Positions 23,305-38,078 of a stretch of DNA of 64,000 nt are shown piece by piece. The DNA comes from Candidatus Hodarchaeota archaeon. GTDB lineage: Archaea > Asgardarchaeota > Lokiarchaeia > Sigyniarchaeales > SOKP01. The position numbers and the translations under genes are program-made. Under the pieces are notes generated by a model, which saw nothing but the letters and a program-made list of their open reading frames with translations, had not been told where the DNA came from and did no database searches. Each line of letters starts with the position of its first letter. Position 1 is the first letter of the stretch. The stretch lies in contig JBHLJY010000010.1 in the NCBI GenBank assembly GCA_048887225.1, positions 23,838-87,837 of the forward strand. Direction: 5' to 3'.

Positions 23305-23583
23305 ATGAAGTCAGAAAAAGAAATCGATAAAGATCATCTTTTAGATTACATAAAAAAAGCAATTAAATTGCTGTGTGAAAAGAATATCTCTGACCTTGTC
23401 ATTTTATCATCTTATAAGATAAATTCTGTATTAAAGGAGAATTACGGTATTGACATAAAAGTCGATAAAATTGGGAGAATCTTAAGTAATATAGCTAAAC
23501 GTAATCAACTAAAAAGACTCAATACTAATATTCCTAAATATAAATTAAAAATATCTAATTTCTCCAGTTTAAAATTCTTCTAA
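23305..23583 (+). CDS. Small hypothetical protein (possible wHTH)
   Basis: 92-aa basic ORF in an intergenic gap, normal codon style. Confidence 0.55.
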   Translation: MKSEKEIDKDHLLDYIKKAIKLLCEKNISDLVILSSYKINSVLKENYGIDIKVDKIGRILSNIAKRNQLKRLNTNIPKYKLKISNFSSLKFF

Positions 23584-23655: not shown

Positions 23656-24981
23656 CTATTTCGTTATATAATTGATAATTTTTTGTAATTTTTGAGAGGC
23701 TTTACTCATTTGTAAATAAAGTTCATTAATACTATTTAATTCTGTATTCAATTTTTCAATATCATTTGCAAAATTCTGTTCCAAGGAAGAGAGATCTGCT
23801 GATACAATATTCTCTATCTCGTTAGAGAAATTCTCTAACTCATTTGAGATTGTCGAGATTTTTTCTATAGTGTTGTTTATCTTTTCTTCTAATTTGAATG
23901 TTATATTGTTAGTATTATTAATTTCTTCTGTAATTCCTTTAATATTATTTTCAATTTTATTTAAGATATTATTAGAATTAATTTCCACAAGATTTATTAA
24001 ATCATTTGAAATTTCGTCTTTAGATATAGAAAATTGGGTTTTTAAGTCCTTTTGAGCGTCAATTCGAGGATCTACATATTTAGCTATATTTTCTTTAAAG
24101 TTGTTTGAAATTTCATCTAAATTTCTTTTAAACCAAGTTTCCACTTTAGACATTCCATTAGAGATTTTATTTTTCATAATACTTGTTGCATTTCTTATAA
24201 GTTTCGAACCGATCAATGATCCTTCTTTAATATCTTTAGTCCAATTACCTAATTGAGATTTAAAGTTGTCCATAAATATATCTGCGAATTTTGAAGCCCC
24301 TTCTTGAAATCCTGAAATTATTGGCTCAACTTCAAGCAAAGTTTCTTCTGGTGCAGGGATCTCTTGAAGTTCACTCGGAGTTGGTTCTGTTAATTCATTG
24401 ATTTCTTTGATTAAGATTGGGGCTTTCTTTTGGGTGTCTTCTACAAATTTTTGAACCCATTTAAAGTACTCAAGAGTATTTGGCAATTCTAACTCGTACA
24501 CAACTTTATGATATTCAGTATTTTTTTCATCTGAATAATCATTTAATCTAAATATTTCAAAACCTAATTTTCCCTCTTTACCCATTAAAGTATGGTCGAA
24601 AACTATATAAAAACCATAAGGTTTATTAACATTCTGGAAAAAATGGTGATTTTTAATCGCCGAGTCACTGAAAAACAAAGACCAACCTGGATGTGATGAG
24701 TACCAACCTACGATATTCATATTGTGGCTAGCATATTTATTTTCAATTTGAGTAAATGTATTATAATCTTCTGAGGTTAAACCTAAGGAAACCTCTTTCC
24801 CATGAGTTATAGGTATGGCATTAATAAGATCTATATCTTTATCGTTTAATTTACCAATACAAATTCCCATTACTTCAACACTTTCATCTAGAGCATCGTT
24901 CCCAAATCTTAAAACATGTGTAATCATGTTTCTAAACGCTTCCCTTTTAATATATACTTTCCCGTCTTTTATATTTATCAC
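23656..24981 (-). CDS. MPN domain + long coiled coil, JAMM motif degenerate (MPN-)
   Basis: EVMG...GWYSSHPGWSLFFSDSA: the first His and the Asp of HxH-x7-S-x2-D are lost. Confidence 0.85.
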   Translation of the reverse strand: MINIKDGKVYIKREAFRNMITHVLRFGNDALDESVEVMGICIGKLNDKDIDLINAIPITHGKEVSLGLTSEDYNTFTQIENKYASHNMNIVGWYSSHPGWSLFFSDSAIKNHHFFQNVNKPYGFYIVFDHTLMGKEGKLGFEIFRLNDYSDEKNTEYHKVVYELELPNTLEYFKWVQKFVEDTQKKAPILIKEINELTEPTPSELQEIPAPEETLLEVEPIISGFQEGASKFADIFMDNFKSQLGNWTKDIKEGSLIGSKLIRNATSIMKNKISNGMSKVETWFKRNLDEISNNFKENIAKYVDPRIDAQKDLKTQFSISKDEISNDLINLVEINSNNILNKIENNIKGITEEINNTNNITFKLEEKINNTIEKISTISNELENFSNEIENIVSADLSSLEQNFANDIEKLNTELNSINELYLQMSKASQKLQKIINYITK

Positions 24982-25148
24982 CTTTTTTTAAATTGGAATA
25001 TGATAGTATTCAAATCCTTTAAGAAGGAATAGGTTATTCAAATTTTTACTTATATCCTTTTTATTTAAAATATTAGTATTAAATAAGAAATTTAAATATA
25101 AAACATTTAATCTAAAATGAATAGTAAATATAAAAAAAAACTCTTCTA

Positions 25149-25673
25149 TTAGTACCAATAATCTAAAAGTTGATGATCCAGTGCGGTTTTGAGGTCATCC
25201 ACTAAATCAGACCAATCAAGCCGAGGAAATTCCATATCTAATTCTATACCATACTTTTCCTTAACTTCTTTTTTTAATGCTCTGATAATAAATTTCTGAT
25301 AATCATTAAAACTACGTTTATACGTCTCAAGAACGATATGAATATCAATAAAACCCTCTTCATACAAAATCTTTTTTAGTTTGTCATATATATATATACG
25401 TTCATTGTAAAATCTATGACGTTTATTAATATTATGAAGCTCCCAAACTTCTACAGAAAATAAAACTGGTGTTTCTATGCCTTCTAGTCTAATTTCTTCA
25501 GCTAGAATATCTATAGATGAATGACCATAATCGGATTCTCCGATATTATGCTTATTCATAAAATCGCGCACCCGCTTATTTTTGATTATGTTATCGTACT
25601 TTAACTTGTTAATTTTATTTAAATATACTTGTTCAGTACCAAATTTGTCAGTATGAAACATTTTATTTAACAT
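25149..25673 (-). CDS. Hypothetical protein
   Basis: 174-aa ORF, no recognised motif. Confidence 0.6.
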   Translation of the reverse strand: MLNKMFHTDKFGTEQVYLNKINKLKYDNIIKNKRVRDFMNKHNIGESDYGHSSIDILAEEIRLEGIETPVLFSVEVWELHNINKRHRFYNERIYIYDKLKKILYEEGFIDIHIVLETYKRSFNDYQKFIIRALKKEVKEKYGIELDMEFPRLDWSDLVDDLKTALDHQLLDYWY

Positions 25674-25941
25674 AAATCGAATTGCTCGTTCATGAGTGAT
25701 ACTTCCGTTTGAGCATTTTCTGCAATAAAATTAATCCTATAATTAATTCTCTTTTTTTTCATTTCTATCTTATCTCTTGAACTAAATATATGATTCAACC
25801 TAAGACTAAATTGAAAAAAAAGAAAAAAAAGTTATATTGTTACTCTTTAAAAATTGCTTTTCGCTTCATAAATGCAATTAAAGAGAGTATGGCAATAAAC
25901 GCAAATAGCAGATTGTATATTTTAAGAAAGAGAATTACTCA

Positions 25942-27204
25942 TCAATTTTTAAACTCAGAGTCTGGAGGTATATCACAATCAACAAAAGCGTAGGCAAAGA
26001 TTTTTGAGTTCTTTCCAATTTTCACTCCTGGCAATAATTTTGCACCAGATTCAATAATTACGTTTTTTCCAATTTCTACATTCCCAGTTCTAAAATTAGA
26101 GACAGTTCCCTCATGAGTAAGGATCGTTGCACCGCTTTTTATTACAACACCCTCTTCAATTGTAATTTTTTCAGGATAATATGTGTCAAAGTGAACGTTA
26201 TCTTCGATTTTAACACTTTTTCCTATTTTAACTCCCGCTTTTCTTAAAAGTGTTTGTCTAAAACTCTGACTTACTAATGGCGATTTTTGCCATTCGATAT
26301 ACATATTATTAAACATTGTCTTGAAATGGTCACCTTTCGGAAATATCAATTTGCTCATATAATCATGTAGCGTAAAATCTAAGCTTTCAACTCTTCTTTT
26401 TGGTAATTTTCTATTTGCATTTTTTTCAATCTTAATGGAGCCATCAATTCCCTTCGCCATTGTATTTTCTTTTAAATCCGATGTTAAAAAACCCGGAGTT
26501 AAAATAGAATTATCTCCCATTTGAGTGCCAGGTAAGACAATAGAACCAAAACCAATAAGACAATTCTTTCCAATTTTAACTTCACCAACGTATAATTCCC
26601 CATCAATACATTCATGACAAAAAATTGAGGCACCCATTCCCATAACCACATTATCACCAATGTCAACTAACTCTGGAAAATAAGGATCTACAACATTGCT
26701 AGATGAAAGATAAACTTTTGAACCCAATTTTGCTCCCATACTTTTTAAATGATGAGCTTTGATTTCTGGGAGCCCAACATACGAACTTATAATATTAAGG
26801 GCATCCTTTATTCTCCACATACTAATTTTCTCAGTCTTTTTATTATTATACTCTTTTAATTCTTCTGTAGTTGCTGGTCGAATTCTTCTTCCATTTTCAC
26901 CATCACGGCTAAGAATTGAATTTTTATATAACTTTTCAATCAATTCTGCATGTATTTCTTTAATGTAGGTTTTATCGTCTAAATTTCGTGGAAATTCACT
27001 TTCTTCTTCAGGATCAATCAATAATGGGTTATAAAATTCCATATTTTTGATTAATGGATACATTTCCACAAGTTTTTTTAAACTAGGCGGGATCACTTTA
27101 TCCACTTTTTTCTTCCATTGTCTTTGACGTCGTTCTTGTTCTTCTTTCCATTGTTGAAACTTTTTTTGTTGATCTTTGAACCAATCTTCAATTTTATTGA
27201 ACAT
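25942..27204 (-). CDS. Acyltransferase-like protein with two left-handed beta-helix (hexapeptide) domains
   Basis: GAKLGSKV..DPYFPE..IGDNV...IFCHE and GVKIGKSV..DTYYPE..IEEGV...ILTHE. Confidence 0.85.
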   Translation of the reverse strand: MFNKIEDWFKDQQKKFQQWKEEQERRQRQWKKKVDKVIPPSLKKLVEMYPLIKNMEFYNPLLIDPEEESEFPRNLDDKTYIKEIHAELIEKLYKNSILSRDGENGRRIRPATTEELKEYNNKKTEKISMWRIKDALNIISSYVGLPEIKAHHLKSMGAKLGSKVYLSSSNVVDPYFPELVDIGDNVVMGMGASIFCHECIDGELYVGEVKIGKNCLIGFGSIVLPGTQMGDNSILTPGFLTSDLKENTMAKGIDGSIKIEKNANRKLPKRRVESLDFTLHDYMSKLIFPKGDHFKTMFNNMYIEWQKSPLVSQSFRQTLLRKAGVKIGKSVKIEDNVHFDTYYPEKITIEEGVVIKSGATILTHEGTVSNFRTGNVEIGKNVIIESGAKLLPGVKIGKNSKIFAYAFVDCDIPPDSEFKN

Positions 27205-27387
27205 TTTAAAAAGTATATTCCCTCATTTTTAATCTATATTCTATAATATCAAATAATTTTTAAATAGTGAAATTAAAAGTTAGCGAAATAATAAAAAAAT
27301 ACGGAAATAAAAAATATAAAATAGAAAACTATACTAAAAACAAAAAAAAGGAAATTTAATAGTTTAATTTAAATCTTTACTTAGAAT

Positions 27388-27507
27388 TTAGACCACTATT
27401 CCATATGCTACTCCTAATACGGTGATTACTATAACTACTGTGAGAATTAGAAAGAGAATTATCCAGATAATAAACAGTATTATTATTAAAGCGAGAAGAT
27501 TAAACAT
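27388..27507 (-). CDS. 39-aa hydrophobic microprotein (not in ORF track)
   Basis: Own translation MFNLLALIIILFIIWIILFLILTVVIVITVLGVAYGIVV*. Confidence 0.45.
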   Translation of the reverse strand: MFNLLALIIILFIIWIILFLILTVVIVITVLGVAYGIVV

Positions 27508-27583
27508 TTATTGATAAAATTAAATAATCCTTAAACTAATATGATAATTAATTCAAATTAAGAAGTAAGTGAAAATAGAAAAA

Positions 27584-27802
27584 ATGCAATATTGTATAAA
27601 TTGTGGAGAAGTAATTTCGGAACATCAATTTGATAATTTTAACGGGATGTGTTCTGCTTGTATTCGCCTGAATTTAAGCCGAAAAAGGTCGCTCTCAGAT
27701 AATATGTCGGTGTCTAAATTTCTTTTAATTGTCTCAATTGTAATTCTTTTATTAGTTATATCAGGAATTATTATAGGCATTCTTTTTGTTCTCATGTCCT
27801 AA
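27584..27802 (+). CDS. Small zinc-finger protein with C-terminal TM anchor
   Basis: CINCG...CSAC then a hydrophobic C-terminal helix; ATG at 27584. Confidence 0.7.
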   Translation: MQYCINCGEVISEHQFDNFNGMCSACIRLNLSRKRSLSDNMSVSKFLLIVSIVILLLVISGIIIGILFVLMS

Positions 27803-27872
27803 TAATTCAATCAATTCAAGAATCTCTAAAAAGTTATATGATCATATTAGATTTATAATTTTTTTAGATAGA

Positions 27873-28766
27873 TTACTCAATTAATAGTTCTTTGATTTTC
27901 TTTCTTGAATTTTCTATATCCAATAGAGCAGAAGAATTAGTAATGCTCAAAAGATCTGCCCAAATATTTAACTCTTGAGAATTATATTCTGAGATCTCTT
28001 TAGTCTCCCTTAAATCCTTATAATAGGGCTCCATTTTTTTTACTTGGAATTGATTAGCTCCACCATTCTTTCTCAAATTATTATAGCCTTCGATAGAAAT
28101 TCCCGATTTATGTTTTTTATAATCATTTATTACAAAATAATTATTCCATAATTTATTATCAATAGGCGGGACAACTAAGATTGGAATATTTCTATTTAAT
28201 TTTCCATGAAGATTATCTCTTAGATAGTCTCCTACTGAAGCTTCAAAACCAAATATAGATATAAAGATAATTTGTGGGATTATCTTAGAATACTGTTTAA
28301 GCTCTTTTTTATGCAGTAATTGAGTAAATTTCTTCACTTCACCAGTTAATTTAAGCATCTGAATTAATTTTAATGGTTGTATTTTCTTATTTGTAAAAAT
28401 AAAGGTAATTTTTAGATTACTATTTTCTTTTTCGACCTCATCAGAATATTGATCTTCGATTCTAATTTTATCATTTAGTTTTTCAAAATAATTTCTTGAA
28501 CTCTTAGAAATAGAATTAGAAATCTGTTCTTCAACTTCGTTTATAATTAAATCAGCAATTCGTTGCTGAAATGCATTATTAAATGCAAAATTGTGATTTC
28601 TAAATATCCTTATAGAATTATTTTTTGAGATAATAATTTTACTCTCGATTAAATCTATGTAAGGGCTATATATTTTCTGCCATATCTCCCCTGAACCGTC
28701 CATTTCTAATAATGAGAAAGGATAATTTCTCAAAATATTAGATTTACTTTCTGTATGTATTGTCAT
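27873..28766 (-). CDS. Hypothetical protein, possibly a degenerate PD-(D/E)xK/Mrr-like fold
   Basis: 297-aa ORF; IFISIFGF resembles the restriction-endonuclease-fold C-terminal motif (weak). Confidence 0.55.
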   Translation of the reverse strand: MTIHTESKSNILRNYPFSLLEMDGSGEIWQKIYSPYIDLIESKIIISKNNSIRIFRNHNFAFNNAFQQRIADLIINEVEEQISNSISKSSRNYFEKLNDKIRIEDQYSDEVEKENSNLKITFIFTNKKIQPLKLIQMLKLTGEVKKFTQLLHKKELKQYSKIIPQIIFISIFGFEASVGDYLRDNLHGKLNRNIPILVVPPIDNKLWNNYFVINDYKKHKSGISIEGYNNLRKNGGANQFQVKKMEPYYKDLRETKEISEYNSQELNIWADLLSITNSSALLDIENSRKKIKELLIE

Positions 28767-28858
28767 TTGTTTTACACATCTTTTTAAATTTTAGAATGTT
28801 TTTTTCTGGTTAAACAAATCTAAATTATTTTTGGATTTAATTCTTTAATCAATCCTTC

Positions 28859-29101
28859 TTAACCATAATTAACAATATATATAGAATTTGTTAAATTAAA
28901 TTTTTCAATTCTAATATTGTTTATTGATCCTTCCTTCCTTGAATCTTGGAGTGGTGTTTTGATAACAAATTTTATATCGTTTAAATATAAGTTATCATAA
29001 AAAATTCCATTATTCTTATTAAAATCAACAAATTTACTTAAATGGTTCTCTAAAATTCTCAAACTTCTCTTCTCATTATTTTGGTTAAATCTACTACACA
29101 T
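28859..29101 (-). CDS. Small hypothetical protein
   Basis: 80-aa ORF co-oriented with 27873..28766. Confidence 0.4.
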   Translation of the reverse strand: MCSRFNQNNEKRSLRILENHLSKFVDFNKNNGIFYDNLYLNDIKFVIKTPLQDSRKEGSINNIRIEKFNLTNSIYIVNYG

Positions 29102-29609
29102 TGTTTTATTTATATTCCTTGAAACACCAATAAATTAAATCTCATAATATCTTAAATTTCAAATGACTACTGTCAAAAAAGCCATAAGATATTTGTCACT
29201 TTCATTGTCGAAATAATTAAGAACGACAATGCTACAAGAGATTCGATTTAAGAAAAAATCTTAAACTTAAAAATTTTAAGGATCTCAAATTTTTTTTGTG
29301 TCTGTATTAATAGTAGTAATAATGATATTTATAATTAACGCTAAATAGTTCTAATTTATTAAAACTCAGCAGACCTAAATTTTTTTTTATTAAAATTTAA
29401 AAGCTGAAATTTTTTTAAGTTTAACCTCTCAAAATCCCCATCTTTAAATAATATCTCTATTTTCTTACTTAGATTTATAGTCTGGAATAATATCTAAAAG
29501 AAAAGATCCCCAAGATTCTGTAAATCAAATCATATTATAATTTATAATAAGTAAAACTTATACCATTGAAATTTTATTTTATTATTGAAAAAGAAATAAA
29601 ATCTAGACT

Positions 29610-30620
29610 ATGATAGAGAAATTTTTAGTTATATCTTATTTTGATATGCACATAGGGCCTAATATCCTTTACAGTAATTCAGATTTTAGTAATGTCTATG
29701 AATTTCCTGATTTAACGAAAATATTGGATTTTATTGATGAGGATGGTACTTTTTTATTTTCTTTTAGAAAATTTCAAACTATTAATACTGTTTTTTATAT
29801 GAAATCTGACAATGCAAGGGGAGGAAAAGATCTACTTATGATTTCTTGTGTAATCCAAGCCTCATATTTTAAAAATGAACTAACTGATATTCTTCAATAC
29901 TTAGAATCAAAGAAACCTCTTTTGGAAAAATTTGTAGCTGAATTGAAAGCACTCCCGAATTTTAACTTAGTTCTACACAAATATAAAAAAAATCCGACCA
30001 TAAAGCAATTTACAGAATATTGTGAAAAAGAAAAAGTAGATTTTTTTTCTATTTATGATAGATTTTTTGATCTAATTTACCCAGAATCTGAAATCAGAAT
30101 CATCACCCAAGATATTAATCTTCAAAAAAAAATTTTACTATTAGGACCTAAAGGTTCTGGTAAAGATACATTTTTAAGATCCATTGAAGCGCTCCAATTT
30201 TATAGTCAAAGCAAATTAGATATTCCCACTAGGATTCTAGGTATAATAATTGATAATATTATTTTGTCTAATACATTTGAATTTTTAAATGGCAAAGTCG
30301 GATTAGATATCGCTCAAGCGGTAATTTTTCTTATTAAAAATATCGATAAAATTACCTGTAATGAAGTCAATTCATTAATAGAAAAATTTATTTCTTCCTA
30401 TTCAAGCCAGAAGTTTGGAAAAGTTCCGCTTTTAATTATAAATAATGTCTTTAAAGATAAGACACCTTTAAGAGAAAAAGAGATAAAAAAAAATATTTCT
30501 ATCCTTAAAAGATTAAAAAAAGAAAAAATTCCAATTAAATATTATTCACTAAATGTTTTTAAAAAAGACCCGAAATTATTAGAACCTTTAAAGTGGTTAA
30601 TTAAAGAGATTTTTACTTAA
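29610..30620 (+). CDS. uDENN/longin-like domain fused to a degenerate Ras/Arf-like G domain
   Basis: N-term SYFDMHIGPNILY and KSDNARGG (R70); C-term KILLLGPKGSGKDT, AQAVIFLI, VPLLIINN. Confidence 0.75.
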   Translation: MIEKFLVISYFDMHIGPNILYSNSDFSNVYEFPDLTKILDFIDEDGTFLFSFRKFQTINTVFYMKSDNARGGKDLLMISCVIQASYFKNELTDILQYLESKKPLLEKFVAELKALPNFNLVLHKYKKNPTIKQFTEYCEKEKVDFFSIYDRFFDLIYPESEIRIITQDINLQKKILLLGPKGSGKDTFLRSIEALQFYSQSKLDIPTRILGIIIDNIILSNTFEFLNGKVGLDIAQAVIFLIKNIDKITCNEVNSLIEKFISSYSSQKFGKVPLLIINNVFKDKTPLREKEIKKNISILKRLKKEKIPIKYYSLNVFKKDPKLLEPLKWLIKEIFT

Positions 30621-31027
30621 TCATTATTATTTTTCAAAAGAGGAAATGCTAGAGCCATTGTATCAGTGATTTTAATTAAAAAAAGCAAAATTTTCCAGAG
30701 CTAGCTGAAGTTATTATAAACTTTATCAAAAACAATCCATAATTGGAATATTACTTTTTTTGCTTTAGAAAATAAATTTGGATATTTGGAAGTTAAAATC
30801 TATATGGTAGTAAATTATTTGAATTTGTACCTACATTTATAAAAAGGATTTTAATATTTTCGAGATTAAATAAAAGAAATAGAATTATCATTTCAAAAAA
30901 ATCATAAAGATACTCTTTAAATTTATTCATTATTCAAAAATTGCGTTAATAATATATAAATCAAGACTCAGTTAAGAAAAACTGAATTATTCAGTATTGA
31001 ACATTGGATATTAAAGATATAATTGAC

Positions 31028-32518
31028 TTATTCGCTCCCTCCCTCTGTATTGTGTAATTTATTTGATAATTCTCGTTTTTGAGCTTCTAATTCTTTTATT
31101 TTATTTGATAATTCTTGTTTTTGAGTTTCTAATTCTTTTATTTTATTATTTAAAGAATTAATAGAACTTTCCAAGTGGGATGTATTTGAGGTTAAATTGG
31201 ATAAAAAAGTCTGAGTTTCATTTTGTAAATCACTAAATTTTTTTGTTAAAATCTCGATTTGTTCTTTAATATTTTCTCTAAATTTTTCTTGAAATCCTTT
31301 TAATTTGTCTGAAGTTAACTTTTCTATTGATTTTATTTTTTCAGATAAATTTTCTAAAGATAAATGTTGTTGATCTAAATTTTCTGAAGATCTAACGTTT
31401 TTATTAGTCATTTCTGTTAAAATCTTTGAATTTTCATCTAAAATTTGCACAATTTTATTTAGTGAAATTTTAATCTTTTCTTTAAATAATTCATTTATCT
31501 TTAGAGGAAGTTCTTCTTTTAATTTAACCATCAAATTTTCAATATCTTCTCGATCTTTATCAAAAGTTTCAAATCGATCATCTATATAGACTTCAAGCTC
31601 ATTTAGCTTATCTATTAATGAAAATTTAAAATTATTCTGAATAGTATCAAGCCCTTGTTTTAAGCTGTCTTTTAACTCTATTAAATCACCTCTTATTTGT
31701 AAATTATTCTCCATCGTAATTTTTATAATTTCCTGACTCCAAGAGTTAAAATAATTTATTAGTGGTTCAATTGAAAATTGTAAAAAATTTGAAATCCCAT
31801 TATATAAAGCTGAGAATATTTCTTTTAGTTTTAATTCGGGTTTGGCTGCTAATAATTCGCTTTTGTCAGGAAAGAAAATTTCGCCAAAAAGATCCGGAGT
31901 TTCATTGATTTCTAAAATTGGTGGCTCTTGGGAGTGAATAATATTTATTAATTCCATTAATTTAATGTAAAACTCCATATTATCGGGATGTTCTACTCTT
32001 GTTTCTACTTCGTGATATTTTGATTTTGAACCCTTCGAAGGATCGTCAAGTCTGAAAGTTCTAAAACCCAAATCTTCTGGATTTTCTAAATAAGTATGAT
32101 CAAAAACAATCCCGATGGCGCTTGGATTTGGAGTTTGCCAACCAAGTTGATTGAGAATATCTGTTCCTGAAAAAAATATTTGTAAGCCAGGGTGGCTATG
32201 ATACCAACCTACTGTAAACCAATTTTTCTCGGCAAACTCTTCATCCACTTGAGCAAAAGTTATATAATCTTCAGGTGCAAATGCAACTTCAATCGACCCT
32301 CCATGTGAAATCGGAACAGCTTCTTCAACAATAACATTTTTTATTACTCCTTCGCCTTCAAGATGCCCAATTAACATACCCATTACTTCTCTATATTGTC
32401 TAGGATCTCTCGCTCTATTACCAAAACGTAGAGTATGAACTAACATTTTGTAATATGCTAACGGTTTGATCACAACTATTTCATTAGTATCATTTAGCTT
32501 TGAACGGCTTTTACTCAA
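31028..32518 (-). CDS. MPN+/JAMM metalloprotease domain + long coiled coil
   Basis: EVMG...GWYHSHPGLQIFFSGTD is an intact JAMM motif. Confidence 0.88.
   Translation of the reverse strand: MSKSRSKLNDTNEIVVIKPLAYYKMLVHTLRFGNRARDPRQYREVMGMLIGHLEGEGVIKNVIVEEAVPISHGGSIEVAFAPEDYITFAQVDEEFAEKNWFTVGWYHSHPGLQIFFSGTDILNQLGWQTPNPSAIGIVFDHTYLENPEDLGFRTFRLDDPSKGSKSKYHEVETRVEHPDNMEFYIKLMELINIIHSQEPPILEINETPDLFGEIFFPDKSELLAAKPELKLKEIFSALYNGISNFLQFSIEPLINYFNSWSQEIIKITMENNLQIRGDLIELKDSLKQGLDTIQNNFKFSLIDKLNELEVYIDDRFETFDKDREDIENLMVKLKEELPLKINELFKEKIKISLNKIVQILDENSKILTEMTNKNVRSSENLDQQHLSLENLSEKIKSIEKLTSDKLKGFQEKFRENIKEQIEILTKKFSDLQNETQTFLSNLTSNTSHLESSINSLNNKIKELETQKQELSNKIKELEAQKRELSNKLHNTEGGSE
31058..31147. 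repeat. 42-nt tandem repeat (two heptads per unit) at the coiled-coil end
   Basis: tttatttgataattctYgtttttgagYttctaattcttttat x2; protein NKIKELETQKQELS/NKIKELEAQKRELS. Confidence 0.85.
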
Positions 32519-32641: not shown

Positions 32642-33328
32642 CTAATGCTCATGAGGTAATGGCTTTCCGCAAAAAGGGCAAAATTTGAAGTCTATATCTT
32701 TCCCGCAATATGGACAGAATTTAGATATTTCTTCCGCGACCTCTTCTGAAGGTGTCTCCACAGATACTTCTTCTTTCGGAGGGGCTCCTGGAATTGTGGG
32801 TAATTGTCGTTTTGTTTTCATTGTAGGTGCTGATACTTTTTCTTCCTTTGCTCTCTCAGCTGCCACCCTTTCTTTGAAAGCTATGCGCTGTTCTTCAATC
32901 ATATCCTCTTGAGTTTTCTCACCTTCTTGCTTAACCCAACCAGGACCTTTAGAAGGTCGTTTTATCTCGCTTTCGGGAACTTTTTCTAATTCAACCTCTT
33001 TTGTTTCAGCAATGGGTACCTTTGCTTTTTTCTCTTGTTTTCTCTCAAGTGCCTGTTTTACCAAGGCTTGTGAGGTCTTCATAATTTGATGAGGATTAAT
33101 GTTAGGTATCATTACAGTTCTTAATACCCAGCCAACAAGGTAATTCTGATTTGGATATTCCCTTTCTGCTGCTAATTCTGTGTCTTTAAATACATATGAA
33201 TCAATCACATCTTTACCTTTTAGAATTCGGGAGGCCCATTTATTATTAATCAAACCAAGTTGCAATCGATAAGATGTCCCGGCTATTCCAAGCTGACCAG
33301 TTAATGGAATAAAACCTTGTTCAGTCAA
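32642..33328 (-). CDS. Hypothetical protein with charged linker and C-terminal zinc ribbon
   Basis: CPYCG...CPFCG; GTGAT SD then TTG start. Confidence 0.8.
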   Translation of the reverse strand: MTEQGFIPLTGQLGIAGTSYRLQLGLINNKWASRILKGKDVIDSYVFKDTELAAEREYPNQNYLVGWVLRTVMIPNINPHQIMKTSQALVKQALERKQEKKAKVPIAETKEVELEKVPESEIKRPSKGPGWVKQEGEKTQEDMIEEQRIAFKERVAAERAKEEKVSAPTMKTKRQLPTIPGAPPKEEVSVETPSEEVAEEISKFCPYCGKDIDFKFCPFCGKPLPHEH

Positions 33329-33520: not shown

Positions 33521-34477
33521 ATGACCGTTATTATTCCAAAAAAGGCTTATTTAACTGTTGTAGCAGCTTCTATTAGATATGCTAACGCTAAGATTCCTTT
33601 TGATGATTGGTTAGAAATTTATGGTATTTTTACTGGAAAGACTTCCAAAGATGGTGAAGATTTAATAATTACAGAAGCATATAATATAACACATCAAGTT
33701 AGAAAGGAAGAGGATATAATAGACAAAGTATTTTGGTCTGACGAAGATTATATTTCATTTAGCATAATTGACGACGAAGCTTTTTCAAAAGGTGAATATA
33801 CTGTAGGATGGTTTCATTCTCATCCAGGTCATAGAGTTATGATGACTAGTTTGGATATTCGTACTACAGCAACTTATCAAAAATTTAATCCTCTCGCAAT
33901 ATCCCTTGTATTTAATCCTGAACGATTAATTAAACAACGTGAACCAGCAGTAAAAAGAGGAGATCCAGATATTAAATTAAAAAACGATCCTGGGTTTAAG
34001 ATTTTTAGTTTAGATGATCCTGAAATGCTTGATTCAAATTATCACGAAGTAAATGATTATAGGATTGAGGGATTTGAAAGCATGGAACAATTAGTTGAGA
34101 AATCTCAAAAATTTGCCTTGGATATAACTAATCTCTTTCCGAAAGATGATATTATTAAAAGCTATAAGAAGTTCGTAAAAAGTAATATAAAGCAGTTAAA
34201 TTCATTATTAATGGGAACTGAAGAATATTTGAAAACATTGGCATTAAAAGGTGAAAAGAGTAGGATTCCTGAAGTTTTAGAAACACAAGGAAAAGATATT
34301 AAAAAATTTGTAGCTGAAACATTCATGAAAATAGAAAATATAAAAGATTTCATGGATTATCTTGAATATAAAGAAAGAGAGGCTATAATTCCAAAAGTAA
34401 ATGATGTCTTATCTAGATGGGATGATGCTATTTCTAATTTGGATCATCAATTAAACGAATTATCAAGAAAATTTTAA
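33521..34477 (+). CDS. Third MPN/JAMM protein with helical C-terminus
   Basis: EIYG...GWFHSHPGHRVMMTSLD (both His and the Asp retained). Confidence 0.85.
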   Translation: MTVIIPKKAYLTVVAASIRYANAKIPFDDWLEIYGIFTGKTSKDGEDLIITEAYNITHQVRKEEDIIDKVFWSDEDYISFSIIDDEAFSKGEYTVGWFHSHPGHRVMMTSLDIRTTATYQKFNPLAISLVFNPERLIKQREPAVKRGDPDIKLKNDPGFKIFSLDDPEMLDSNYHEVNDYRIEGFESMEQLVEKSQKFALDITNLFPKDDIIKSYKKFVKSNIKQLNSLLMGTEEYLKTLALKGEKSRIPEVLETQGKDIKKFVAETFMKIENIKDFMDYLEYKEREAIIPKVNDVLSRWDDAISNLDHQLNELSRKF

Positions 34478-34577: not shown

Positions 34578-36788
34578 ATGAAAAAGATTAATTTTCCATT
34601 TACAGCGATATTAGGACAAGACAAAATGAAAATGGGCTTAATTTTAAATGTAATTGATCCTCAAATTGGTGGAGTTTTATTAACAGGTCACCAAGGGACT
34701 GGGAAGTCAACCGCCGTGAGATCTTTAGTGGAAGTTATGCCAAAAATAGAAACAATTGAAGACTGTCAATTTTCTTGCGATCTAAAATCAAATATCGATG
34801 ATCTCTGTGCTTCCTGTCGCGAGAAAAAGGAAAAAGGAAAATTAAAAACATATATTCGAGAAATGAAAATTGTGAACCTACCTCTTGGGGTTACTGAAGA
34901 TATGGTATGCGGAAGTTTATCCATTGATAAAGTTCTTACAGAAGGAACTTCAGAACTTCATCCAGGCTTATTGGCTAAAGCAAATCGAGGGATTTTATAT
35001 GTCGATGAAATTAATCTATTACAAGATCATATAGTTGATGTTCTATTAGATGCTGCAGCCTCAGGAGTTAATATAATCGAAAGAGAAGGAATCTCTGTTA
35101 TGCACCCCTCTAGGTTTGTACTAGTTGGCTCAATGAATCCTGAAGAAGGAGAATTAAGGCCTCAAATAGCCGATCGATTAGGTTTGGAGGTAAAAATTAA
35201 GGCGCCTCGTGATCCTGTTTTACGGGCTGAAATTACAAAGCGAGTAATAGAATTTGATGACAATCCGAAAGAATTCGTAAAAAAATTTGATAAGAAACAA
35301 GAACAACTAAAGCAAAAAATTATTAAGGCAAGAGATATAATAAAAGAAGTTCAGATTCCAGCGAAGATTTATGAATTAGTATCAAAAATCGTTAATGATC
35401 TCGGGATTTTCTCACAAAGAGCAGATATCACTTTCATTAGATGTGCTAGAGCTCACGCTGCTTTAAATAATAGAAGGAAGATTGAACAGGAGGATCTCAA
35501 TGTTGCTATGGATTTAGTTTTCGAGCATCGTATTGCATCATTACATTATGAACTGACACCTAAAGAGATAAAAGCAAAAATTACCGAAGTTTACGGAAAA
35601 ATTGAAGAAGCATACGAAGACCCAAAAATATATAAGTCAAATCCGGAAACTGAAGGGCCTTTAAAGCACGATGATGCTGCGCAAGAAGAATTCAAACGGC
35701 AATCTGTTGATCCTGATAAAGTAGATGTTGGAGAAACGAAAGAACAAAAACTTCCTCCTCCTAAATATCCAGATAAGAAAAAGAGAAAAGCAAGACCAGC
35801 AGGTGGCTGGAAAGTTAAGGATATACCAATTGAAGAAGCGGATAATTTTAATTTATCAGATGATGATTTTGATATAATCCCCTTTATTTATAAGATGGAA
35901 AAAAAAATGACTTCTATTTTAGATAATATTCGCAAGGATCGTAGAATTTCTGATTATGGAGGTCGGGGGATTGGTCGTAGAATTAAAATAGCGTCATCTC
36001 AAAAAGGAAGATACGTATCGTATCGAAGTCCTAGAGGTCAACAACCAAAAAGTATTGCATTAGATGCTACAATAAGGAATTACTTAAAAAATATTATTTA
36101 CAATCAAACGGAAATTAACTTTCCGATTAGATTTAATAAATACGATTTGATGGATAAAATTTACGAATATCGGGCACCTTTAGCGCTATTTTTTGTCCTT
36201 GACAGTTCAGCGTCAATGTACTATGTTATTAAACAAATGACTGATGTTATTTTATCTTTACAAAAAGAAGGATATAGGAAAAGAGATAAAATTTGCCTTA
36301 TAATCTTTAGAGGTAAAGAAGCAGTTGTTTTGCAGAAACCTACTGTTAATTTTAAATATGCAGTAAATAAGTTAAAAAAAATAGAAGGAAAATCATATAC
36401 ACCAATGGCAGCTGCTTTAAGGAAGGTTATGGATTTAATAAAAGTAGAGAGAATGAAAAATCGAAATATAGTTCCTGTAATTTTTATTTGTTCAGACTGT
36501 GGTGCTAATATTTCAGCGAAATATCCTGAGTTGATTGCTCAAATCGAAAGTGACTATGCTGTGGTTATTCAAGAATTAAAGGAATTGACCAAAAAACTGA
36601 CAAAACAAAAAGTTCACATAGTTGTGTTAGAACCAAAGAAATCATATGCAACGCAAGCACTCGGTGTACATCCATATTCTGCTGATAAAATAAAAAAAAA
36701 TTTTAAGAAGTATGGTAATGCTGAGATATATAAGTTCGATCGTTATAATCCGTCTTCTTTGATCCTTGAATTAAAAAAGATTCTTTAA
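34578..36788 (+). CDS. ChlI/ChlD-like AAA+ ATPase fused to VWA domain
   Basis: FPFTAILGQ, GHQGTGKS, YVDE, MNPEEGELR; MIDAS DSSAS...T...SD. Confidence 0.9.
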   Translation: MKKINFPFTAILGQDKMKMGLILNVIDPQIGGVLLTGHQGTGKSTAVRSLVEVMPKIETIEDCQFSCDLKSNIDDLCASCREKKEKGKLKTYIREMKIVNLPLGVTEDMVCGSLSIDKVLTEGTSELHPGLLAKANRGILYVDEINLLQDHIVDVLLDAAASGVNIIEREGISVMHPSRFVLVGSMNPEEGELRPQIADRLGLEVKIKAPRDPVLRAEITKRVIEFDDNPKEFVKKFDKKQEQLKQKIIKARDIIKEVQIPAKIYELVSKIVNDLGIFSQRADITFIRCARAHAALNNRRKIEQEDLNVAMDLVFEHRIASLHYELTPKEIKAKITEVYGKIEEAYEDPKIYKSNPETEGPLKHDDAAQEEFKRQSVDPDKVDVGETKEQKLPPPKYPDKKKRKARPAGGWKVKDIPIEEADNFNLSDDDFDIIPFIYKMEKKMTSILDNIRKDRRISDYGGRGIGRRIKIASSQKGRYVSYRSPRGQQPKSIALDATIRNYLKNIIYNQTEINFPIRFNKYDLMDKIYEYRAPLALFFVLDSSASMYYVIKQMTDVILSLQKEGYRKRDKICLIIFRGKEAVVLQKPTVNFKYAVNKLKKIEGKSYTPMAAALRKVMDLIKVERMKNRNIVPVIFICSDCGANISAKYPELIAQIESDYAVVIQELKELTKKLTKQKVHIVVLEPKKSYATQALGVHPYSADKIKKNFKKYGNAEIYKFDRYNPSSLILELKKIL

Positions 36789-36842: not shown

Positions 36843-38078
36843 GTGAAATCCATTTTAGTTGTGGGATTTAACACGCGTCCATTAGCATATTCCCTGAAAA
36901 ATGCGGGGTATGAGGTATATGCTGTAGATTTTTTCGGTGATCTGGATTTATATCCAAATATAAAGGATTGCATAATTGTTATTAAGAAGCTGCAGACTAA
37001 TTATTCACTAATTAAAGATAGATATAGCAAATTTTTAGCTGAATTTACTATAGATTTAATGCAAATGTACCCTAAGATAAATTATATCTTAATTAGCAGT
37101 GGTTTAGACGATTCATATAAAGAAAGAGAAATGATTCTAAATGAGATAAAAAAAAGCAAATATAAGATTTTAAGCCTTAATAACAAAATAGATACAATTA
37201 AAAAAGCTCGAAATATTGAAAATATTTATAATATTTTAAAATCTAAAGAGTATCACGTTCCTTTAACGTACTCCTTTGAGGAGTTTAAATCCAAAATCTA
37301 TAAATTTGAATTTCCTTTTATTTTTAAAAAAAAAAAAGGATCTGGTGGGATTAATGTCAACAAGATTGAAAACGAGAATCAATTATCTTTTTTTATAAAG
37401 AAGCAAAAAATCAAGCGCTTTAATCCATCAGATTGGCTAATTCAAGAATATATAAAAGGATTGCCTATTAGTTGTACGGTTATATCAAATGGTTTAGAAT
37501 GTGAAGTAATCTCGATCAATAGACAACTTATTGGATTAAAATTTCTAAATCCTCCTAAAGAATTTATGTATTGTGGTAATATAGTTCCTGCTAATATAAT
37601 TAAAGAGGATGAAAAATTAATTTCTGAGATTTCAGTATTTTTAACTAAAACGCTCGGTTTAAGGGGTATAAATGGATTTGATTTTGTATTGAAAGATCAT
37701 TATCCTTATCTGATGGAGATCAATCCAAGAATACCTGGTTCTATTAATGTTTCGGAAACTGTTTTGAATTTAAACTTATTAGATTTACATATAAAAAGTT
37801 TTATAAATTCTAAATGGGAATTTATTAAAAATACAATTAACTGTACTAAACCTAAAGGATTTGCAACTAAATTGATAATGTTTGCTCCAAAAGAAATTGA
37901 TAAGGAAGTAATACCAAAAATAAATCAACTTGAAAATGTATACGATAAAACTGAACCAAAAACAGTATTAAAAGACGAACCTTTATGTACAATATTATAT
38001 AAAGATAAAAATTTTTCAGAATCTTATTTTGGAGCGTTAAAAATTGTAAATGAAATAAAGAAAATTATAGGGGATTAA
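36843..38078 (+). CDS. ATP-grasp domain protein (COG2232-like)
   Basis: D.FGDLD, KGSGG, IQEYIKG, GFDF, EINPR. Confidence 0.85.
   Translation: MKSILVVGFNTRPLAYSLKNAGYEVYAVDFFGDLDLYPNIKDCIIVIKKLQTNYSLIKDRYSKFLAEFTIDLMQMYPKINYILISSGLDDSYKEREMILNEIKKSKYKILSLNNKIDTIKKARNIENIYNILKSKEYHVPLTYSFEEFKSKIYKFEFPFIFKKKKGSGGINVNKIENENQLSFFIKKQKIKRFNPSDWLIQEYIKGLPISCTVISNGLECEVISINRQLIGLKFLNPPKEFMYCGNIVPANIIKEDEKLISEISVFLTKTLGLRGINGFDFVLKDHYPYLMEINPRIPGSINVSETVLNLNLLDLHIKSFINSKWEFIKNTINCTKPKGFATKLIMFAPKEIDKEVIPKINQLENVYDKTEPKTVLKDEPLCTILYKDKNFSESYFGALKIVNEIKKIIGD

Follow-up and report, generated by a model that had tools for sequence, protein, structure and literature searches.

The stretch of DNA analysed here, referred to throughout as the window, comprises 64,000 nucleotides (nt) of contig JBHLJY010000010.1 (contig C10 in our numbering) from an Asgard archaeon and encodes two long, mutually related MPN proteins, A and B. 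Gene A has an intact JAMM motif and gene B a degenerate one, and their products are predicted to be the catalytic and the non-catalytic subunit of one complex. The window has a GC content of ~28% and belongs to a 3.27-Mb genome that is 98% complete; its closest database proteins carry Promethearchaeota labels (Lokiarchaeia-type Asgard archaea). The two genes and the elements recognized within them have the following window positions.

31028..32518, minus strand: gene A, MPN+ (JAMM-intact), 496 amino acids (aa); open reading frame (ORF), PF01398 at 50.2 bits, AlphaFold2 model
23656..24981, minus strand: gene B, degenerate JAMM (MPN-), 441 aa; ORF, PF01398 at 55.3 bits, head-linker-tail plan as in A
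32159..32200, minus strand: JAMM motif of A, HSHPGLQIFFSGTD, with H107, H109, S117 and D120 (codon translation)
32387-32389, minus strand: catalytic Glu E44 of A, in EVMG (codon translation)
24658..24699, minus strand: degenerate motif of B, SSHPGWSLFFSDSA (SSH...SDSA; codon translation)
31883..31927, minus strand: linker motif of A, EPPILEINETPDLFG, residues 198-212, invariant or near-invariant columns in alignment A1
24352..24426, minus strand: linker motif of B, KAPILIKEINE...LQEIPA, residues 186-210, corresponding to the A linker motif
31055..31138, plus strand: 42-nt tandem duplication inside the 3' end of gene A (repeat family D1, 93% identity)

The paralogy of A and B, which an earlier note on this DNA had read from shared motifs, is clear from BLASTP, which aligns the two proteins from the N-terminus to the tail ends with 29% identity over 481 columns (E 2e-47) and places every one of those motifs in register (H.LRFGN, EVMG, PI.HG, IVFDHT, LGF..FRL.D, YH.V and PIL..EINE). 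In each protein an MPN head, scoring above the curated cut-off of PF01398, is followed by a conserved linker and then by a helical tail of ~220-260 aa. Translation of the codons agrees with the motif states given in the same note. Gene A fits the pattern HSH-x7-S-x2-D, and its motif residues are invariant in the 79-sequence alignment A1. In B, S95 stands in place of the first His and A108 in place of the Asp, so that two of the three zinc ligands are gone; Glu E36 (in EVMG), the second His and the Ser are retained.

The motif stretch of A lines up with the active site of a Caldiarchaeum enzyme homologous to Rpn11; this enzyme is also the best solved sequence relative of the A head (E 7e-13), with Rpn11 and CSN5 matching as well. 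Profiles of the A and B families have Rpn11, BRCC36 and CSN5 as their first matches. An AlphaFold2 model of A, built on the 79-sequence alignment with a mean predicted local distance difference test score (pLDDT) of 74.5, assigns residues 14-195 to the MPN domain, followed by a linker of low confidence (196-229) and by two very long helices that span 231-315 and 319-492. Foldseek searches with this model gave BRCC36 (6gvw_B, E 8e-12) over 302 aligned columns that include the helix following the head, and also Rpn11 (TM-score up to 0.75 on the target), the Caldiarchaeum enzyme (CsRpn11) and CSN5; the comparisons with the structures of Rpn11, BRCC36 and CSN5 have E values of 1e-9 to 1e-11. Protein A is a predicted JAMM isopeptidase of the Rpn11/BRCC36/CSN5 type.

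The linker of A is nearly invariant in sequence, yet its pLDDT is below 50 at residues 196-229 of the monomer model, and the motif it contains is a candidate docking motif. The linker of B has invariant columns in alignment A2 at the P188-equivalent, I191, E193, E196, L205, I208 and P209. Within the tail of A, the 42-nt duplication encodes two 14-aa repeats, and P0124, the orthologue nearest to A, is shorter by exactly 14 aa. Two other orthologues of A (P0147 and P0152) are 110-130 aa longer and have an extended helical tail that ends in a lysine-rich stretch of ~35 residues.

The arrangement of the two genes was compared with that in 24 related loci, of which four are metagenomic or NCBI contigs and twenty come from genomes of the window's GTDB family. 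In every one of these, A and B are adjacent and translationally coupled, with a gap of -8 to 12 nt; only in the window do 6,046 nt separate them. The intervening DNA is the following element.

24982..31027, no strand assigned: 6,046-nt insertion separating A from B, GC ~24%

The insertion contains genes for a hexapeptide-repeat transferase, a longin/Arf-like GTPase fusion, and proteins of 174, 77, 297 and 80 aa. Its two halves (25951-27707 and 27851-30620) are found on two different contigs of a congeneric genome (G138) with 86-94% nt identity, which exceeds the 76-78% between the flanking cluster genes of the two genomes. At locus L081, which comes from an 85%-identical relative, the C-terminus of A still abuts B. 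Because the halves sit elsewhere in G138 and A abuts B in L081, the split appears to be recent and particular to this genome. A mobile-element origin was sought through flanking repeats, and no convincing direct or inverted repeats and no integrase were seen at the flanks of the insertion. The ORF upstream of B in L081 (L081:364-894) corresponds to A from residue ~319 to its end, placed behind an unrelated 15-residue start, with a tRNA-binding-domain gene further upstream; this represents either a truncated A or a chimeric metagenomic contig (2.4 kb).

To describe the active sites across the family, sequence searches with A and B were used to assemble large families with 42-92% identity, ~98% coverage and full-length conservation. 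In the joint alignment the constellation E-H-H-S-D is present in 117 of 118 cluster representatives of A, the lone exception being a gap at the Glu. The complete motif is also found in 54 of 119 representatives of B, whereas the degenerate patterns seen in the other 65 number about twenty. The lineage of P0051/P0190 is one of those with an intact B. The A and B proteins each form a monophyletic group with a support of 100, and the two groups fall together, apart from the four other MPN paralogues of the genome, although this split has a support of only 76. In an IQ-TREE phylogeny of B rooted on A, the basal lineages are intact and there are at least four changes between intact and degenerate states, all on well-supported branches. 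Because of these two properties of the rooted tree, B appears to have been ancestrally active and to have lost its site at least four times independently; A kept its site. The B protein of the window falls within a clade in which 34 of 35 representatives are degenerate. Its ratio of nonsynonymous to synonymous substitution rates (dN/dS), calculated against the 85%-identical orthologue at L081, is 0.21 for the whole protein, with 0.20 for the head and 0.21 for the tail, values that indicate purifying selection on B and not decay of the protein.

These results bear directly on the expectation in the earlier note that loss of the motif would be conserved among B orthologues, and that orthologues with an intact JAMM motif would point to decay in a single strain. 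Conservation of the loss holds within the clade of the window and does not extend to the family. Intact orthologues are thus common, as that objection anticipated, but the shared degeneracy of the clade speaks against strain-specific decay.

The distribution of the pair was determined with a full-length B profile searched against 150 Asgard genomes drawn evenly from the phylum. Of the 25 other genomes in the window's GTDB family (f1), 24 gave a match. The remaining family genome is G138, in which gene A is cut at a contig end and B lies outside the assembly. Loss of the pair from this congeneric genome was considered and rejected, as A runs off the contig end and the neighbouring zinc-ribbon gene and third MPN paralogue (gene C) are intact. 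The 125 genomes sampled from 26 other Asgard families yielded no full-length match; matches there stayed at the level of the MPN domain and on inspection were other, shorter MPN genes. Some NCBI records belonging to the A and B families are labelled Hod-, Hermod-, Odin- or Thorarchaeota, labels that are at odds with the GTDB sample and call for caution. The duplication that produced A and B is lineage-specific, since the two sister clades are restricted to a single family of Lokiarchaeia-type Asgard archaea. Because of this restriction, the likeness of A and B to Rpn11/Rpn8, CSN5/CSN6 and BRCC36/Abraxas is best described as convergence and not ancestry. The earlier comparison with the logic of the Rpn11/Rpn8 or BRCC36/Abraxas pairs holds for the motif states of A and B in this genome and does not extend to common descent.

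The tails were described in the earlier note as a coiled-coil stalk of ~250 aa. The length agrees with the helices modelled at residues 231-492 of A, and the canonical coiled coil does not agree with the helical period. In alignment-averaged hydrophobicity spectra, residues 231-315 of A and 225-300 of B have a peak at 3.68, and residues 319-492 of A and 300-441 of B have a peak at 3.58, so that the switch from 3.68 to 3.58 occurs at matching positions in the two tails. Power at the heptad period of 3.50 is 10- to 20-fold lower, and the tails are therefore not canonical heptad coiled coils. They match the profiles of apolipoprotein A-IV, apolipoprotein A-I and apolipophorin III weakly, because their periods are 3.68 and 3.58 and not 3.5.

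A full-length model of the A-B complex, calculated with both family alignments, has a median interface score (ipSAE) of 0.61, as compared with 0.02 for the best of three controls. The mark used for this score is reached by 58 of 80 solved complexes and by 2 of 110 mismatched pairs. At least 35% of the contacts agree among runs, and the partner pLDDT is at least 65. The predicted interface joins residues 19-37 and 177-197 of A with residues 16-31 and 164-190 of B, which are the first and last MPN helices of each protein. Further contacts connect the tails (A 257-388 with B 247-375) at a constant offset, and the modelled tails therefore form a parallel, in-register rod.

Genes A and B are part of a larger conserved cluster, and the additional members of the cluster in the window are listed here.

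32642..33328, minus strand: zinc-ribbon protein, 228 aa, first gene of the zinc ribbon-A-B unit (Pfam Zn_Ribbon_1 and DZR; AlphaFold2; alignment A3)
33521..34477, plus strand: gene C, third MPN paralogue, 318 aa (PF01398 at 44.9 bits), divergent and 1 kb beyond A
34578..36788, plus strand: ChlD-like AAA+-vWA fusion, 736 aa (Pfam Mg_chelatase, AAA_lid_2 and VWA_2)
36843..38078, plus strand: ATP-grasp ligase-like protein, 411 aa (PF02655, E 1e-31)
23305..23583, plus strand: conserved 92-aa protein of no known family, convergent with B (64-84% identity)

In most loci the recurrent order is ATP-grasp, ChlD-like AAA+-vWA and C, followed on the opposite strand by the zinc-ribbon gene, A and B, and then by the convergent gene of ~92 aa. 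The zinc-ribbon gene lies directly upstream of A in all 24 related loci, the 92-aa gene directly follows B in 22 and is a few kb away in the other two (L009 and L010), and the ATP-grasp gene adjoins the AAA+-vWA gene in most. In the three loci of genus g4 (L059, L061 and L062) the block of C and AAA+-vWA is ~10 kb from the zinc ribbon-A-B unit. Because g4 separates this block, the firmly linked core consists of the zinc-ribbon gene, A, B and the 92-aa gene. Atlas searches with the 92-aa protein returned unnamed Promethearchaeota clusters only.

The zinc-ribbon protein begins with a domain that is modelled with confidence (residues 1-105, a four-strand meander and two helices), continues as a linker in which short motifs are conserved, and ends in a double ribbon of the form CPxCG...CPxCG. 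The N-terminal domain belongs to no named family: Foldseek found nothing below E 0.1 in the PDB, VIA-align over 48,161 chains had a best Z of 6.5, which is the level of chance arrangements, and an Atlas feature search returned no usable match. A profile of the domain recovers 130 clusters at 50% identity, which constitute an unnamed Asgard domain family. The domain is single-copy in this genome and has distant copies in nine other Asgard families. In three clusters (P0263, P0330 and P0256) it is fused behind a Ras/Rab-like GTPase, a fusion that provides a lead towards a possible GTPase-linked targeting of the zinc-ribbon protein.

Gene C encodes the motif HSHPGHRVMMTSLD (HSH...TSLD), which is intact with Thr replacing Ser, and its helical tail is shorter. 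Neither this gene nor the insertion nature of the 6-kb spacer between A and B had been recorded in the earlier note. In genus g5 (L052, L053, L055 and L056) the Asp ligand of C is lost (SGFG) and B is degenerate as well, so that the cluster retains an intact site in A alone. Two metagenomic loci contain additional genes of a related kind.

L010:5238-6461 and L009:5207-6413: two extra MPN-like genes of ~200 aa each (P0244 and P0245) without a JAMM site, between the zinc-ribbon gene and A

These extra short MPN- genes are found only in L009 and L010, where B is intact, and other genomes with an intact B are without them. Among the related loci, loss of the B site has no clear correlation with the presence of such dedicated dead MPN genes.

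The AAA+-vWA protein is the best conserved product of the cluster, with 75-91% identity across the family, and it scores 582 bits against TIGR02442, which is below the cut-off of that model. A classical chelatase role was evaluated by looking for the CobN/ChlH large subunit, which was not found in the 98%-complete genome, and the protein may serve something other than a chelatase. The AAA+-vWA and ATP-grasp proteins are tied to A and B by synteny alone. PCI genes were likewise not found in the cluster; PF01399 has only weak matches, inside large proteins on other contigs. A complex of the lid or COP9 signalosome (CSN) type was rejected on this basis, given the missing linked PCI partner and the weak matches elsewhere. 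No UEV (BRCC45-like) gene was seen in the cluster.

The genome contains six PF01398 genes, and B is the only one with a degenerate site. Besides A, B and C these encode proteins of 265, 541 and 370 aa, located as follows.

Contigs C2 (~176-181 kb), C3 (~16.5 kb) and C7 (~57.5 kb) of the window's genome (G000): other MPN paralogues and their neighbourhood (loci L003, L005 and L006)

The 265-aa gene on contig C2 adjoins genes for an E2 enzyme and a ubiquitin-like protein and is part of a canonical Asgard ubiquitin operon. The C-terminal half of the 541-aa protein is a helical repeat without a confident Pfam match, and the 541-aa and 370-aa types are found throughout the family. The genome encodes ubiquitin-like proteins and E2 enzymes, with matches on contigs C2 and C3; the ubiquitin-like genes are near 180 kb of C2 and near 63.2 kb of C3.

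Comparison with characterized systems helps to place the pair. BRCC36 with Abraxas or KIAA0157 (ABRO1) is the core of the eukaryotic BRCA1-A and BRISC complexes, and mutations in helix alpha-1 of BRCC36 break the BRCC36-Abraxas dimer (PMC4579573). This is the closest known design, an MPN+ protein with a paralogous MPN- protein whose post-head helices pack together. Among solved structures, BRCC36 fits the A model best, with an alignment that extends through the helix after the MPN domain; the counterpart of helix alpha-1 of BRCC36 lies in the predicted A-B interface, and a helical bundle after the MPN domain in both subunits, as in BRCA1-A and BRISC, is present in the A-B model. In contrast to BRCC36-Abraxas, A and B are of independent origin, have tails that are 4-5 times longer and not based on heptads, retain an intact B motif in ~45% of representatives, and have no UEV partner in their cluster. 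The vWA protein of BRISC is MERIT40, whereas the vWA domain of the cluster is part of the ChlD-like fusion, linked by gene order only.

Rpn11-Rpn8 and CSN5-CSN6 are also pairs of an active and an inactive MPN protein, as A and B are here; the core of A is nearest in sequence to Rpn11 and CSN5, and the predicted A-B interface likewise uses the first and last MPN helices. Unlike these pairs, the A/B cluster lacks PCI partners and has rods of ~250 aa in place of short C-terminal bundle helices, and A and B are not orthologous to their subunits. CsRpn11 from Caldiarchaeum subterraneum (PDB 6fjv, 6fju and 6fnn) is an archaeal enzyme that processes ubiquitin and crystallized as a homodimer through helices H1 and H4 (PMC6043591). 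It has a VGWYHSHPGL..F.S.TDI..Q stretch nearly identical to that of A, and its crystal dimer uses the same helices as the predicted A-B interface. However, CsRpn11 is a short single protein encoded beside a ubiquitin/E1/E2/E3 operon without a paralogous partner or rod, unlike A and B, which are not encoded with ubiquitin, E1, E2 or RING E3 genes. The role of CsRpn11 is in this genome better matched by the 265-aa MPN protein on contig C2 than by A or B. The ESCRT-associated enzymes AMSH, AMSH-LP and Sst2 share the JAMM isopeptidase core and give weak sequence matches (E 1e-6 to 1e-4). AMSH resembles A and B far less than Rpn11, BRCC36 and CSN5 do. It acts alone, with MIT and helical regions at its N-terminus and an additional zinc site in Ins-2.

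With moderate confidence, we favour the explanation that A and B form a heterodimer in which A acts as a zinc-dependent ubiquitin(-like) isopeptidase and B, in this genome, as a non-catalytic partner. The two proteins would be subunits of one MPN complex whose heads pair through the first and last MPN helices and whose tails form a parallel, in-register and near-straight rod. A would be the only obligatory catalytic centre, with an activity predicted from its motif and fold, and would most likely cut ubiquitin or a ubiquitin-like tag. Such a substrate is the most economical, because ubiquitin-like proteins and E2 enzymes are encoded in this genome and the nearest relatives of the A head are enzymes that cut ubiquitin. 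B would have passed from a second active subunit to a non-catalytic partner in this lineage and at least three others, and its role may now be that of a scaffold, possibly with allosteric support of A. The zinc-ribbon protein would probably be a third subunit or an adaptor. The logic of an enzyme paired with a pseudoenzyme, as proposed in the earlier note, gains from the gene coupling in 24 of 24 loci, the retention of the JAMM site in A beside its frequent loss in B, the dN/dS of B and the ipSAE of the A-B model; what has to be given up is B as a uniformly dead, Rpn8-like subunit.

Several observations weigh against this explanation. Both subunits look active in about half of the B family, and a dead partner is therefore not a defining property of the system. 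The ipSAE of 0.61 may stem from likeness to the solved Rpn8-Rpn11 and BRCC36-Abraxas structures, and close paralogues can also pass, so that the score cannot separate an A-B heterodimer from A-A and B-B homodimers. Co-variation of A and B tail lengths is not visible among the 6 usable pairs (r 0.05). Ubiquitin genes are not linked to A or B in the genome, and the operon on contig C2 includes an MPN gene of its own, for the 265-aa protein. Finally, the operon is broken here by the 6-kb insertion, and co-expression of A and B is no longer guaranteed in this genome.

In one alternative arrangement A and B stay apart and form their own homodimers on their own rods, A as an active isopeptidase and B in a separate, partly non-catalytic role, with their adjacency a remnant of tandem duplication. 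BRCC36 and the Caldiarchaeum Rpn11 homologue both crystallize as homodimers through the same helices (PMC4579573; PMC6043591), the complex score does not tell a paralogue from a true partner, and this genome tolerates a 6-kb separation of the two genes. We nevertheless regard separate homodimers as quite improbable, since gaps of -8 to 12 nt in all related loci have outlasted what is expected of a duplication remnant, the two tails change helical period at the same place, and repeated catalytic loss in a conserved B fits a partner better than an independent enzyme. It is very doubtful that the tails are instead amphipathic, apolipoprotein-like helices that anchor the MPN heads on a membrane or lipid surface and do not serve dimerization. 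Their periods of 3.68 (11/3) and 3.58 rather than 3.5, the matches to apolipoprotein A-IV, apolipoprotein A-I and apolipophorin III, and the poly-lysine tail end of some A orthologues would fit such a role; the matches are weak, however, and may reflect composition, hendecad periods are also known in straight helical bundles, the A-B model packs the tails against each other in register, and no membrane-related gene is linked. We give hardly any credence to B as a relic nearing loss in this genome, with its site gone, its operon disrupted and its original start replaced by GTG. The insertion, an N-terminus ~6 residues shorter than in the nearest orthologues, and the absence of two zinc ligands would fit a relic. 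Against this, B has an open frame of 441 codons and a dN/dS of 0.21 (although most of the divergence from the 85%-identical orthologue probably predates the insertion), and its degenerate motif is common to a clade of 34 cluster representatives with full-length conservation.

A broader alternative is that the whole cluster (zinc ribbon, A, B, C, AAA+-vWA and ATP-grasp) is one machine whose substrate is not ubiquitin and would be either a peptide or amino-acid tag made by the ATP-grasp protein or a protein handled by the ATPase. We consider this unlikely, though worth keeping in view. Most of the 24 related loci have the same genes in the same order, identity of the AAA+-vWA protein within the family is 75-91% with no CobN/ChlH partner in the genome, and the ubiquitin operon is located elsewhere. 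In addition, vWA subunits neighbour MPN dimers in known complexes, as Rpn10 does in the proteasome lid and MERIT40 in BRISC, and this counts in the same direction. Conversely, the two halves of the cluster are ~10 kb apart in genus g4 and hence separable, and a gene order shared by the members of one family says little about function. The active site of A also lies in a stretch that is almost the same as in an enzyme known to process ubiquitin, and no tag gene is evident in the cluster. An extension of this thought, which we offer as speculation of low probability, is a single tag-editing machine built independently of eukaryotes, with an A/B heterodimer on a non-heptad rod (which would be ~35 nm if fully extended, as estimated from helix length), C, a zinc-ribbon adaptor, an AAA+-vWA motor, an ATP-grasp ligase and, in some lineages, the two short dead MPN subunits. 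If true, this would amount to a lid- or BRISC-like assembly coupled to trafficking under the control of small GTPases, in which the second and third active sites are being lost.

Returning to the A-B heterodimer, a 2018 study of the archaeal Rpn11 homologue stated that an organization of active and inactive MPN proteins was not known in archaea (PMC6043591), and a search of the full-text literature, including PMC10936438, bioRxiv 10.1101/2023.07.25.550441 and PMC6043591, returned no description of the A/B pair. As the duplication is lineage-specific, A and B say nothing about how the eukaryotic pairs themselves originated. The family-specific expansion of MPN genes, with six per genome, joins the list of eukaryote-like systems in Asgard archaea.

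The eukaryotic JAMM deubiquitinases of the proteasome lid, the signalosome and BRISC/BRCA1-A each consist of an enzyme bound to a dead paralogue. To our knowledge, the origin of such pairs is known only from their end states. The Asgard family described here appears to have arrived at the same design independently and has all of the intermediate stages, from both sites intact in the basal lineages to one site dead after at least four losses. As such, the A/B family would provide a natural series on how a second active site becomes dispensable and on what a dead subunit contributes.

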